Shown here: positions 16,303-21,104 of the stretch, one piece after another
How positions within the stretch are numbered: position 1 is the first letter of the stretch
Layout of the letters: the number at the start of each line of letters is the position of its first letter
Source: Candidatus Heimdallarchaeota archaeon
GTDB taxonomy: Archaea; Asgardarchaeota; Heimdallarchaeia; Hodarchaeales; Hodarchaeaceae
NCBI GenBank assembly: GCA_011364965.1
Contig: RDOB01000004.1
Location: forward strand, 64,001-128,000
Direction of reading: 5' to 3'
DNA length: 64,000 nt
Program-made: the position numbers and the translations under genes
Notes under the pieces: generated by a model
What the model was told of the DNA's origin: nothing
Database searches by the model: none
What the model saw: the letters and a program-made list of their open reading frames with translations, nothing else

Positions 16303-16776
16303 TTAGAAATTTTCGAGCTCTTTTAACGCGGCCATGATCGATTGGGATTCTGGCTTTTTTATTTTTACTGCAGAGGGCTCTGATAGCTTATCCATTAGTG
16401 TAGATAGGGTGCCAGAGGTTTCTTTCATTCTAACTCTGATTAAACCAAGTTGGGCGTCACCTTCTGCAACCACAACTAGTACTCCTCTCTCTCCGCTTTG
16501 AGCTGTTAAAATTTTCCCATCTGTAAACTCAGCAAGCATCAATCCGAGTTCCCCTAATGTTAGCGCACTTCCTTGTTCTGCTGCTCCACAGAAAACGGCG
16601 GATGCTATGGCTCCTATGCTTTCAAGATCAAACGCACCCATAGTTTCAGAAACTAATAACCTAGAAGCTCGGGCGATAGTTAAACCGGTTCGATCTCCTA
16701 ATAAAGTAACTTTGATCGAGGTATCACTCTTCAAAAGTTTTGTCAGTTCTTTGTGAATTGCGTCTCTTTGTTGCAT
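16303..16776 (-). CDS. Roadblock/LC7 (MglB-like) protein
   Basis: DRTGLTIA, IGAIASAVF, AQLGLIRVRM; ATG at 16776 chosen over TTG at 16791. Confidence 0.88.
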   Translation of the reverse strand: MQQRDAIHKELTKLLKSDTSIKVTLLGDRTGLTIARASRLLVSETMGAFDLESIGAIASAVFCGAAEQGSALTLGELGLMLAEFTDGKILTAQSGERGVLVVVAEGDAQLGLIRVRMKETSGTLSTLMDKLSEPSAVKIKKPESQSIMAALKELENF

Positions 16777-17035
16777 CGAATAAACACCCAAATCCGCATT
16801 ACTTAGTATTCGCTCTGCTACTTAAATGATTTTACCTTGTAATAGTTTAAGTAGTTTTTCAAATAGGGTCTCAACCTTATCCTCATTTTGAATTTTTTGT
16901 TTAGAAATTATTCCTCCAAAATTCTACTGTTAATCTATAAGGAATGATGATATAGATGCCAAGGAAGTACTTTAAACTTTCCCTTTTCAGACGGATTAAT
17001 TCTATAAATCGTTTTCCATTATTAATCTTTAATAA

Positions 17036-17752
17036 TTAAAGTACAATAATTACAATTACCAGTGCGATGACTGATCCTGCAAGTAATGCTAGCAATGTCC
17101 GATTTTGTGTTAACTTTCTTGAAATTTTGATTAGAGTTGCTTGAACATTCTTTAATTTATCATCTACTGCCGTGATTTTCGTATCAATTTTATCAATTTT
17201 AACTCCCTGTTCATCTAACCTTTGTGTTAATGTGGCTAGATTCTGGGAAATTTGTTGGATTTGATTATTCATCTGATCCATAGAGGTTAGGAATGAATTT
17301 TCTAGGATTTGTAATCTTTCTTCAAGTGTACCTACATTTTGAGAGGTGATAGCTTCCCCTGGATAAGCAATTTCATAGATCCGATTACCGAGATGAGTTT
17401 CTGGAGGACTAGCTTTTAGATCCATAGTTTCGATTGAACTTCCGATTCCACTCAACGTTTCTCTTAGATGACGCATTTTTTGTTTCGTAGTCAGAATTTC
17501 TTTTATTTTCTCATTTTGACGCTTAATTTGCACAGGTTGTAAGAATTTTGGCAAAGAAGAAGCAATTTTGGTAGAGAGGGATCTCTGTTTAATAACTTGG
17601 TCTGAATATCCAGAATGCATGTCATCAGCCATATCTTCCATTGTTTCCAATATTGTATCCAAATCCCCAATGAAATCCATGATCATTTCCTTTTCAGTTG
17701 GCTCAGATGGCTTTTTTAACCATTTTTCCAAACGCTTAGTTATCACAGACAT
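17036..17752 (-). CDS. Tail-anchored Q-SNARE-like protein
   Basis: Heptad layers M158-I210 around central Q182 (EQG), followed by a C-terminal TM helix with no outer tail. Confidence 0.78.
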   Translation of the reverse strand: MSVITKRLEKWLKKPSEPTEKEMIMDFIGDLDTILETMEDMADDMHSGYSDQVIKQRSLSTKIASSLPKFLQPVQIKRQNEKIKEILTTKQKMRHLRETLSGIGSSIETMDLKASPPETHLGNRIYEIAYPGEAITSQNVGTLEERLQILENSFLTSMDQMNNQIQQISQNLATLTQRLDEQGVKIDKIDTKITAVDDKLKNVQATLIKISRKLTQNRTLLALLAGSVIALVIVIIVL

Positions 17753-17942: not shown

Positions 17943-20900
17943 ATGGCCATATTTCAGTGTAAAAAACCAAAAAAATCACTTTTCATGCTTTTATTGGCAT
18001 TTTTTCTTATCATACCACCAGTATTTGGTATTATAACATTAAACAAGGAAATTCAGATCGAAACTCCATCTCAACAAGATGTTGAAACCCTAGTTCAAGA
18101 GTTTCACCTTACCCAGAAACCTAAGGAGCAACTTTTTCTGATTTATTTTGATGAGGATAAAGATTTCTACAATTTTCTCGATAATCAGAATGTGAATCTT
18201 ATTTTTAGAGGGCTAAAAGGAGTCGTTATAAAAAGTACTCATAATAATGTTAACCAATTAATAGGAAAGTATAAATATCTTTCTGAATCTAATTTTCATT
18301 TAATTGAAGGATCCGATCATAAATATGTAGTTCACGAAACACCTCAAAATAAATATAATCTAGTTGATGACCAACTATCCCTTTCAATTCAAACTTTGGC
18401 CTCAGCAGCGAAAATAGGTGCAAATAAAATGTGGCAGCAAGGGTACAAAGGCCAAGGAGTTAAAATATGTATAATAGACGAAGGAATCAACGCGAGTCAT
18501 TCAGATTTCAGCTTTCCCAACGGAACTAATCGAGTTGTAGCCCGAGAAGGATTTGTTAATACAACATATGGAAATTCTGAAGATCTGAATCCTAGGGAGG
18601 GATCTCATGGAACTAGCGTAGCAGGCACAGCGGGTGGAGGAGGAATTCTGATTCCAAATAATCAAGGTATAGCAAATGAATCACTTTTCCTCGATGCAGA
18701 TGTAGATGAATCTCCTGATACAAATAGTTTAGATTTCACTATCCTTGGCCATATTGCCGCAATTAATTGGGCAATTGAAAATGGAGCTGATATCATAAAT
18801 CGTAGCTATGGTTCAAGTAATGGAGAAGATACCTATTGGATATATCGCTTAGTTCCTGACTATAAAGCATTAATGGCAACAATCAGACAAGGAACAAAAC
18901 AGGGAGTTGTTTTTGTACACTCAGCAGGTAATGAAGGAGGATCAGGATACACCATATCCCCTGACAATATCATTGAAGAGATAACTGTTGCTGCAACTGA
19001 TCCCTCGATGACACATCGAGCGGATTTTAGTAGCACAGGGCCAGTTTGGCGGACAAATGCTATAAGTCCAGATGTAACTGCTCCAGGGGATGATATAGCT
19101 GCCCCAGATGTTAGAGGAGGGTATAGTGTTGTGCAAGGTACATCATTTTCTGCCCCACATGTCGCAGGAGCTAGTGCACTTTTAATAAACGCTGCAAGAA
19201 TGAATAATCTTGAAATTAACCCAGGTTCAGTTAAAAGTATTTTAATAGCTACAGCAGAAGACATAGATGAAAGTATCTTTGCTCAAGGAACAGGACAAAT
19301 AAATGTTTCAGCAGCATTCGATTATTTATTATCAGCTCAAAGAATAGGTGTGCATCCAATTGTAGGTGCAACTAATCCTAGAAACCTAAATGATTTGAAC
19401 TTACCTCAAATTCTATTAGGTACTGAATATTTAACCCATTTTACTTTTACATCTTCAGAAATGAAAAATGCGTCAATTTCATTGACTGGAAACATCTCAT
19501 CACTAATTTCCTTTGAAGAGCAATTATGGATTGATACACTCTATCAAGGAATGAAACTGGAGAAAATTAACCTTGCAGGGGAAAATTTATCTGAACAGTA
19601 TTCTCATGATATTATTTTACGAATTCAAGTACCGGAAAATACCCCTCTTGGTTTTTACTACGGAGATATTATTTTCAAGGTAAATGACACCAATATCTTA
19701 ACTAAACCAATATCTTTTAATGTAAATCCTAGTATAATGAGAGTTTTATTGCATACAGGAGATTCCGCTAGTTTTCGGTACAATTCATTGGGGGATTTTA
19801 GAGAACTTGTTTCTGGATTGAGTTCTGAAGGTATTGTAATTAACGAGAACAATTCAATCATTTCAGATGAACTTCTATCAGACTATGATGTTGTGTGGCT
19901 CGCAGCAGAAAATCGGACTTATTCTGTGTATAATTACAACAATTACTCCGATACAATCACCACTCTTACGCGTGATCAGCTTTTTACAGAAGAAGAAAGA
20001 CTAGCTATAGTCTCTTTTGTGGAAAATGGCGGTGGAGTGATAATGACTCCATACACGACCACTCTCGGAGTTGAAGAGATAATAAACAGCTGGGGAATAA
20101 GCTCGAAATTAGATGCAGATATAAGTGGAAATCCAGGAACTTTAATTCATGCTAATGAGATTGGAAAGGATTTCGGTCATTTTGATATTTCAGGATCATA
20201 TTTTTCAGTTACGGAATTAGCCCTTCCATTAGCTTATCATAATCAACGAAAAAACATAGTTTTAGCTTCCTATGATGCTCCATTTGGAGGAAGAGCTATC
20301 ATCGCCTCAGGTAGCGACTTTATAACTAATTGGGGGTATCAAAATGAGTTAACCGATCAACCTGATTTTGATATTCAGAATGACATGCTAGTAGAAGATA
20401 TTTTAACTTGGCTTTTATCTGAGGATCAACTAACTGGGTTGTTTAAACAGAATGGTGATGTATTATCATTTTCCCTGCACATTTCAAACAATTTTGTTCC
20501 CGATAACAGTGGAGGTTTAACAGGATCAGTTCAGAGAATCGGAAGTGTCAATCAAGAAGACGTAACATCTGAAATGCCATCAACTGGTACTAATGGCTGG
20601 TATAATTTCACCTATACCATTTCTGAGGGATTTTTCTTCTTTAATTTTAGCTGGAATGATGTTTTCATAGCTTTTGAGATAATAAATGATGAAACAGCTC
20701 CAATCATAGGAATCAGTGGTGTGGAAAATAATACCGTATTCAAAGTTCCAACTGATGTAATTTTCTGGTTTGATGACGCAGGATCAGGAATCAATCAATA
20801 TAGTGCTGCAATGACTATTAATGGAAGTAAGGCCAACTTCAATACCCCTAAGAAGAATTCTACTGGAACTGGTTATTACATTGAGAAAACTTTTTATCCC

Positions 20901-21104
20901 GATGATATGGAAAAAGGGATTTATGTTGTTGAACTAAAAATTTCGGATCTGGCAGAGAATACAGCATCAATTATCTTCGTCTTCAGAATAGGCCGTACAG
21001 GAACTCCTGAAGAACCTGCAGATAATGGTACATCTGGTTTTGAGTGGAGTTTGGTTATTAGCTTGTTTATTCTTGGACAGGTTTTCAGAAAAAAATGGAA
21101 ATAA
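17943..21104 (+). CDS. Surface-anchored subtilisin-family (S8) protease
   Basis: Signal peptide, catalytic IIDEG / SHGT / GTSFSAP, further domains, C-terminal SGFE + TM + basic tail sorting signal. Confidence 0.92.
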   Translation: MAIFQCKKPKKSLFMLLLAFFLIIPPVFGIITLNKEIQIETPSQQDVETLVQEFHLTQKPKEQLFLIYFDEDKDFYNFLDNQNVNLIFRGLKGVVIKSTHNNVNQLIGKYKYLSESNFHLIEGSDHKYVVHETPQNKYNLVDDQLSLSIQTLASAAKIGANKMWQQGYKGQGVKICIIDEGINASHSDFSFPNGTNRVVAREGFVNTTYGNSEDLNPREGSHGTSVAGTAGGGGILIPNNQGIANESLFLDADVDESPDTNSLDFTILGHIAAINWAIENGADIINRSYGSSNGEDTYWIYRLVPDYKALMATIRQGTKQGVVFVHSAGNEGGSGYTISPDNIIEEITVAATDPSMTHRADFSSTGPVWRTNAISPDVTAPGDDIAAPDVRGGYSVVQGTSFSAPHVAGASALLINAARMNNLEINPGSVKSILIATAEDIDESIFAQGTGQINVSAAFDYLLSAQRIGVHPIVGATNPRNLNDLNLPQILLGTEYLTHFTFTSSEMKNASISLTGNISSLISFEEQLWIDTLYQGMKLEKINLAGENLSEQYSHDIILRIQVPENTPLGFYYGDIIFKVNDTNILTKPISFNVNPSIMRVLLHTGDSASFRYNSLGDFRELVSGLSSEGIVINENNSIISDELLSDYDVVWLAAENRTYSVYNYNNYSDTITTLTRDQLFTEEERLAIVSFVENGGGVIMTPYTTTLGVEEIINSWGISSKLDADISGNPGTLIHANEIGKDFGHFDISGSYFSVTELALPLAYHNQRKNIVLASYDAPFGGRAIIASGSDFITNWGYQNELTDQPDFDIQNDMLVEDILTWLLSEDQLTGLFKQNGDVLSFSLHISNNFVPDNSGGLTGSVQRIGSVNQEDVTSEMPSTGTNGWYNFTYTISEGFFFFNFSWNDVFIAFEIINDETAPIIGISGVENNTVFKVPTDVIFWFDDAGSGINQYSAAMTINGSKANFNTPKKNSTGTGYYIEKTFYPDDMEKGIYVVELKISDLAENTASIIFVFRIGRTGTPEEPADNGTSGFEWSLVISLFILGQVFRKKWK

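Follow-up and report, generated by a model that had tools for sequence, protein, structure and literature searches.

The window analyzed here, the whole stretch of 64,000 nucleotides from Candidatus Heimdallarchaeota archaeon (NCBI GenBank assembly GCA_011364965.1, contig RDOB01000004.1, positions 64,001–128,000 of the forward strand), carries on its reverse strand, at positions 17036–17752, the coding sequence of a Heimdall prototypic SNARE, which was recognized from the list of open reading frames (ORFs), its translation and BLASTP, and which on sequence comparison is a clear ortholog of HPS1. As a Heimdall SNARE the protein is already known, and the gene represents one more ortholog rather than a new kind of protein; its identity, the register of its layers, its tail-anchored layout and its presence as a single copy were established in this analysis. 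The best overall explanation, to which a probability of roughly 0.8 is assigned, is that this Hodarchaeales ortholog of HPS1 is held in the membrane by its C-terminal tail, would pair with itself as a parallel tetramer and, if copies assemble in trans, could bring about membrane fusion or tight membrane apposition.

Structure of the Gene and Its Product

The SNARE-like ORF (17036–17752, reverse strand) begins with an ATG codon, ends with a TAA codon at 17036–17038 and encodes a protein of 238 amino acids, as read from the ORF list and the translation; the position of its start is supported because relatives share the same MSVITK-type N-terminus. The parts of the protein described in this section are all encoded on that strand. 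A helical hairpin is predicted at residues 20–109 (17426–17695) by AlphaFold2, both in a model of the N-terminal domain alone and in a model of the full-length protein. This is followed by the coiled-coil or SNARE-motif region at residues 141–216 (17105–17332), which was delimited by its layers, its conservation, the interface of a four-copy model and a profile, and which contains layers -7 to +8 at residues 158–210 (17123–17281) and, at its center, the zero-layer glutamine Q182, encoded by CAG at 17207–17209; these positions were checked by script.

The original prediction had described a basic linker of about 10 residues followed by a terminal transmembrane helix, and both elements were recovered from the sequence and a hydropathy scan. 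The juxtamembrane linker, read directly as SRKLTQNRT, consists of nine residues, S211–T219 (17096–17122), including the basic residues R212, K213 and R218, and the stretch KLTQNRTLL, which runs from the linker into the anchor, is invariant in 20 closer relatives. Residues 220–238 (17039–17095) constitute the sole strongly hydrophobic 19-residue segment of the protein, with a mean Kyte-Doolittle value of 3.25, and end at the stop codon, forming a tail anchor without a luminal tail; a C-terminal transmembrane helix was found in all of the aligned relatives.

Orthology to HPS1

Tail-anchored SNARE-like proteins were reported in Heimdallarchaeota by Neveu et al. (bioRxiv 10.1101/810531; Curr Biol 2020;30:2468), and HPS1 is the protein PWI47941.1 of archaeon B3-JM-08, taxid 2012493 (bioRxiv 10.1101/810531). 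This taxid belongs to Candidatus Heimdallarchaeota archaeon B3_Heim, and a scan of reference genomes revealed a single SNARE-like gene in B3_Heim (L014:5001-5720), which encodes 239 amino acids including F155 and Q183. The gene is identified as HPS1 because the taxid and these two residues match the published descriptions, in which an F155W mutant of HPS1 served for detection and four Q183 residues occupy layer 0 of the crystal structure (Bentahar et al., bioRxiv 10.64898/2026.10.19.760048). The window protein aligned with the product of the B3_Heim gene along its full length in BLASTP, with 64% identity over 228 residues and an E-value of 5e-105, and the order of the surrounding genes is common to the two loci. 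The original prediction, which saw in the sequence a Q-SNARE-like protein with a tail anchor and assigned it to a class already known from Heimdallarchaeota, is thereby upheld, the protein being an ortholog of HPS1. Its remark that the Leu at layer -3 matches neither Qa nor Qb/Qc agrees with the published view that Heimdall SNARE-like proteins lack type-specific features and branch outside all four of the types Qa, Qb, Qc and R.

The motif of HPS1 forms a homotetramer, as determined by SEC-MALS, which unfolds only above 90°C, and the crystal structure of this motif at 2.4 Å resolution is a parallel four-helix bundle of 16 layers (Bentahar et al., bioRxiv 10.64898/2026.10.19.760048). HPS1 can also join mixed complexes with neuronal SNAREs, in which it takes several helix positions (bioRxiv 10.1101/810531). 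The HPS1 complex is not disassembled by murine NSF. Since Q182 of the window protein aligns with Q183 of HPS1, the layer-0 register that had been read from the sequence matches that of the crystal.

The two orthologs share the same N-terminal helices, the 16 layers, the glutamine at layer 0, the KLTQNRTLL linker, the tail anchor and the flanking genes, are nearly equal in length (239 amino acids in HPS1 and 238 in the window protein) and occur as one copy per genome. They differ in that they come from different species of the same order and that the window protein has a one-residue deletion in the loop preceding the motif; moreover, the oligomeric state of HPS1 has been measured, whereas that of the window protein, a homotetramer, is predicted on the basis of published HPS1 together with the model described below.

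A word-indexed search yielded 67 relatives with 56–84% identity, nearly all of 239 amino acids, in Hodarchaeales and Heimdall-group metagenome-assembled genomes (MAGs), and further full-length relatives, with identities down to approximately 25%, came from cluster representatives, which were searched exhaustively. The same architecture and register are found in HPS2 (OLS22354.1, Heimdallarchaeota LC_2) and in other SNARE-like proteins of Heimdall and the Kari clade. These proteins are much more divergent than HPS1 and differ from the window protein in often carrying a Lys-rich N-terminal extension and in having no adjoining Roadblock gene, and some of them occur as tandem paralogs.

Layer Register and Conservation

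The original prediction had placed 16 layers in register around Q182 (codon 17209-17207), and each residue that it named was matched by script: layers -7 to 0 are M158, M161, I165, I168, L172, L175, L179 and Q182, and layers +1 to +8 are I186, I189, I193, V196, L200, V203, L207 and I210. The spacing between layers alternates between three and four residues, corresponding to the a/d positions of a heptad, and the 15 layers that flank the central glutamine are all Leu, Ile, Val or Met.

In an alignment of 36 sequences with identities down to 25%, the 15 non-central layers are hydrophobic in every relative (36/36), and layer 0 is Gln in 34 sequences and His in two; the relatives with 25–43% identity retain all of the hydrophobic layers together with a QG sequence at layer 0. 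The two exceptional sequences, P0068 and P0079, have His in place of the zero-layer Gln within EEHG and GDHG. The pattern was also sought in the genome from which the window derives, where 5160 ORFs were called and 90 were kept as having a single C-terminal transmembrane helix; among these 90 tail-anchor-like ORFs, the window ORF alone shows Leu, Ile, Val, Met or Phe in 15 of 15 layers around a Q or R. Because the layers are kept in all 36 relatives and are unique among the 90 tail-anchor-like ORFs, the pattern is beyond what chance would give.

Within residues 141–162 (17266–17332), four additional conserved a/d positions, L143, L147, L150 and F154, precede layer -7 and contribute to the interface when four copies are modeled; the coiled coil would therefore be approximately four layers longer than the canonical 16.

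Model of the Four-Copy Assembly

Modeling of a homotetramer had been suggested as a check in the original prediction, and in silico the motif passes it. Four copies of residues 141–216, modeled with the family alignment, reached an ipSAE of 0.84 in three runs, compared with 0.01 for the best of three controls; the partner pLDDT was 89, and contacts agreed between runs to at least 98%. The lowest-error contacts join equivalent residues of adjacent chains (189:189, 196:196, 200:200 and 203:203), and because equivalent residues touch, the modeled bundle is parallel and in register, with Q182 within its interface. In a calibration carried out with two copies, not four, 20 of 30 solved homo-pairs and one of 23 single chains attained the mark applied to ipSAE. 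Because SNARE bundles have already been solved, the four-copy pass may reflect structures that the modeling program had learned. The model speaks for a likeness to SNARE bundles, not for binding, and cannot separate four chains from three or five.

Likeness to Eukaryotic SNAREs and to Other Coiled Coils

When the whole window protein was compared with Pfam, no SNARE family appeared among the listed matches; when the genome was searched with single models, the protein scored 14.2 bits for PF05739 (cut-off 26.8) and 16.3 bits for PF00957 (cut-off 26.4). Over the 36 family members, at E ≤0.01, PF05739 matched 22 (best E-value 2.7e-5), V-SNARE_C (PF12352) 17 and Synaptobrevin seven, and coiled-coil families other than SNAREs matched about equally, with DUF1664 found in 22 of the 36 members and COG6_N in 17. 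The SNARE signal in Pfam is thus recurrent across the family but sub-threshold, and both Q-type and R-type models are weak on the family, with neither clearly preferred. Sequence searches of Pfam and the PDB with the whole protein gave sub-threshold coiled-coil noise and were set aside; it was the restriction to the motif that made such searches informative.

A profile of the motif alone, searched against the PDB, retrieved SNAP-25 (E-value 1.7e-4), syntaxin-6 (2.7e-4) and syntaxin-7 (5e-4), and SNAREs made up 26 of the best 60 distinct sequences. The same profile ranked designed coiled coils (3e-9) and reovirus sigma-1 (1e-5), a trimer, above the SNAREs. In a designed single-chain t-SNARE, the EQG sequence aligns with the EQG of the family. 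Among language-model neighbors, every one of the closest clusters that bear a name consists of eukaryotic SNAREs, with a score of 0.92 and 190 shared features. Taken alone, these tests of SNARE likeness are suggestive, not decisive; what decides the matter is orthology to HPS1, for which a structure has been reported.

The eukaryotic Q-SNAREs to which the protein shows likeness (syntaxin-6 and SNAP-25 of the Qc/Qbc types, and syntaxin-7 and -13 of the Qa type) are likewise tail-anchored, with a 16-layer motif of approximately 55 residues, and share with it the central Gln and the short basic linker; the parallel bundle has been reported for its ortholog HPS1. In eukaryotic SNAREs the central layer is composed of three Q and one R, whereas in a homotetramer of the HPS type it is composed of four Gln. 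The window protein also differs from eukaryotic Q-SNAREs in lacking a signature of any of the types Qa, Qb, Qc and R and in that its Pfam match is below the cut-off, and its N-terminal domain is modeled as a hairpin, in contrast to the Habc domain of eukaryotic syntaxins, an autonomous antiparallel bundle of three helices that each span about 30–35 residues.

The N-Terminal Domain

The N-terminal region had been proposed to be Habc-like, a reading that is not supported by the present models. In the AlphaFold2 model of residues 1–136 alone (mean pLDDT 81), two long antiparallel helices, at residues 20–54 and 74–109, have pLDDT values above 90 and form a two-helix hairpin, and the further helices, at residues 2–12, 59–65 (within the connection of the hairpin) and 119–129, are short. 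The long helices recur in the AlphaFold2 model of the full-length protein. The N-terminal extension of HPS proteins has been described in the papers as likely to be a three-helix bundle.

A Foldseek search with the N-domain model gave no match at E ≤0.001. A wide structural search produced tied matches to generic hairpins, namely CHMP4B (Z 10.2), designed hairpins and the arms of SMC proteins and seryl-tRNA synthetase, at Z values of about 10, which lie below the meaningful level for helical folds. No syntaxin N-domain occurs among the best 50 rows of VIA-align; one may still be present further down.

The full-length model, when compared by Foldseek, matched only designed four-helix bundles, with E-values of 0.03 or worse and TM-scores of about 0.3. 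In this monomer model the SNARE helix is broken at residues 182–188, directly at layer 0. The matches to four-helix bundles suggest that the helix is folded back onto the N-terminal hairpin; this is more likely to be an artefact of modeling one chain by itself than a closed form of the protein.

Partners and Helpers in the Genome

The genome comprises 2.97 Mb in 16 contigs and is 87% complete. A family profile run on this genome found one gene only. The search for an R-SNARE partner that had been proposed from the sequence was carried out with the family profile, PF05739, PF00957 and the layer scan, and revealed no credible second SNARE or R-type partner in the 87%-complete genome. The runners-up of the layer scan among the 90 tail-anchor-like ORFs are spurious hydrophobic ORFs. 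A search for Sec1/Munc18 gave no match in the genome, a result that says little, as the same search matched no control genome.

The genome encodes a homolog of Get3/ArsA (281 bits) and three genes of the Cdc48 type. Matches to the alpha-SNAP model (PF14938) were found in long TPR-type frames; they were not counted because PF14938 also matches bacterial control genomes. One of these, outside the window (G000:C12:419567-420163, forward strand; L040), lies in a frame of 528 amino acids, covers positions 27–226 of the model and, at 50.2 bits, exceeds the cut-off; it is probably a generic TPR protein.

Genomic Neighborhood

A Roadblock/LC7 gene (16303–16791, reverse strand; Pfam PF03259, 31.6 bits, cut-off 23) lies directly downstream of the SNARE gene on the same strand, with a gap of about 245–260 bases; by homology, its start is probably the ATG at 16776. 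On the other side, upstream of the SNARE gene and on the opposite strand, an S8 subtilase of 1053 amino acids with a C-terminal transmembrane segment is encoded at 17943–21104 (forward strand), the starts of the two genes being 190 bases apart. The arrangement of subtilase and SNARE genes is found in five related loci, including that of B3_Heim. The shared gene order consists of the subtilase on the opposite strand; the SNARE, Roadblock/LC7 and TFE-alpha genes on one strand; and then the genes for GGPP synthase and a HAD hydrolase.

The Roadblock gene adjoins the SNARE gene in 17 of 18 related loci (L002–L019), these 17 being all of the loci with enough flanking sequence, and across them the Roadblock protein is 84–91% identical, compared with 61–72% for the SNARE. 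The pair was also found in one genome of a sister family. As a deep link across the whole family, the adjacency was rejected, being absent from 15 loci of three other families and from three metagenomic contigs. It thus represents synteny at the level of the order and is therefore weak evidence for a shared function. The Roadblock neighbor is not mentioned in Neveu et al. or Bentahar et al. It is conceivable, though quite unlikely, that the Hodarchaeales Roadblock protein, which is MglB-like, could act as a dedicated regulator of the SNARE, e.g., as a binding partner of the N-terminal hairpin or as a link between SNARE assembly and a small GTPase. If so, the association of Roadblock and SNARE would be a forerunner of the control that longin and Roadblock domains exert on eukaryotic SNAREs and Rab/Rag GTPases.

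Distribution and Paralogs

Among 301 genomes sampled across the phylum, with a match threshold of E ≤1e-5, the SNARE-like gene was found in 37, and all but one of the matches fall in five families of the class to which the window belongs: 18 of 20 genomes of its own family, both genomes of the sister family (2/2), and 11/11, 1/1 and 3/3 genomes of three further families. Two other families of the same class, f3 and f7, yielded no SNARE-like gene in 29 and 11 sampled genomes, respectively, several of them more than 90% complete, and all of the other families sampled gave no match except a marginal one at 3e-6. The distribution within Heimdallarchaeia is thus patchy.

Each matching genome of the 301-genome sample contains a single copy, except for one in which two copies stand in tandem. 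In other Heimdall lineages, such pairs of SNARE-like genes are located at L053:2978-4470 (reverse strand), L020:88-1132 (forward strand) and L050:3267-4717 (forward strand); in these paralogs both copies have QG at layer 0, and Arg is found in none. In the pair at L050, one copy has a shortened N-terminal domain. This locus derives from GCA_048938655.1, which is outside the two assemblies with a duplication that are named in the 2026 preprint.

Proposed Mechanism and Alternative Explanations

In the proposed mechanism, the last 19 residues would serve as a tail anchor, presumably inserted after translation, for which the Get3/ArsA homolog could be responsible, and the remainder of the protein would face the cytoplasm. 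The heptad region of about 55–75 residues would zipper with three further copies into a parallel, in-register four-helix bundle, in which 16 hydrophobic layers would be arranged around a central ring of four Q182 residues and the four anchors would emerge at the same end. If copies residing in two membranes assemble in trans, zippering from the N- to the C-terminus would pull the membranes together, resulting in fusion or tight apposition. The N-terminal hairpin probably regulates this process or recruits other factors, and recycling of the bundle, which is very stable, may fall to an AAA ATPase of the Cdc48 type. Of these steps, we infer membrane fusion, insertion by Get3, recycling by Cdc48 and the regulatory role of the hairpin.

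The main live rival is a non-fusogenic tether or scaffold, in which the protein and its homotetrameric bundle are the same and the role is different: the bundle would tether membranes, act as a scaffold, bend membranes, or be a stable oligomer within one membrane that organizes other factors via the N-terminal hairpins. Fusion has been reported in the literature for no member of the family, and the authors of the published work allow for a role of Heimdall SNARE-like proteins in tethering or membrane bending. A lone SNARE that pairs with itself could form its bundle just as easily inside one membrane as across two, and assembly inside one would be unproductive; the genome, as described above, revealed neither a second SNARE nor a match to Sec1/Munc18; and the thermal stability of the HPS1 bundle and its resistance to NSF fit a structural role. 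Against this, a parallel bundle joined through a nine-residue linker to a C-terminal anchor is a layout that couples zippering to membrane apposition, and, according to the preprint, the geometry and core volume of the HPS1 bundle are within the range of eukaryotic fusion complexes; the preprint also cites vesicle-like structures in cultivated Heimdall archaea. A role other than fusion is judged unlikely, if clearly more probable than the other alternatives.

The two remaining explanations concern the complex and the nature of the protein itself. The protein might normally pair with so far unrecognized helices in a heteromeric SNARE-like complex, the homotetramer being a default of the test tube; the entry of HPS1 into mixed complexes with neuronal SNAREs and the tandem paralogs of some other Heimdall lineages are in keeping with such pairing. 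It is nevertheless rated very improbable, given the one family gene in an 87%-complete genome where PF05739 and PF00957 find nothing credible elsewhere, the layer scan of the 90 tail-anchor-like ORFs, which gave no second candidate, and the tandem paralogs themselves, all of which keep Gln, and none Arg, at layer 0. The chance is negligible that the protein is a generic tail-anchored coiled coil, such as XhlA, DUF1664 or FlaC, or a trimer, and that it resembles SNAREs only as any heptad repeat would. Such a reading could draw on automatic annotations of some relatives as “archaellum component FlaC” or “chromosome segregation ATPase,” on sub-threshold Pfam matches that spread over many coiled-coil families, and on the trimeric sigma-1 and viral fusion proteins among the PDB sequence matches. 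A better match to coiled coils of the XhlA/DUF1640 type, which the original prediction had held out as the result that would speak against a SNARE, was not obtained: XhlA (PF10779) reaches 16.2 of the 34.7 bits that its cut-off requires, DUF1664 (PF07889) 17.5 of 34.6 and FlaC 14.3 of 27.8. Furthermore, the tetramer reported for HPS1, at 64% identity, is parallel and has the geometry of a SNARE bundle, one conserved polar residue, a Gln, stands amid 15 conserved hydrophobic layers in the 36 relatives, and SNAREs lead both the natural matches of the motif profile and the language-model neighbors.

Implications for the Heimdall SNARE Family

The window gene adds one ortholog to about 50 already collected and leaves the overall picture unchanged; it confirms, in a further genome, the single copy and the absence of an R-type partner. 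The HPS family to which it belongs is the only known prokaryotic SNARE and occurs solely in those archaea that are most closely related to eukaryotes. The family suggests a four-helix bundle that paired with itself as the starting point of the fusion machinery.
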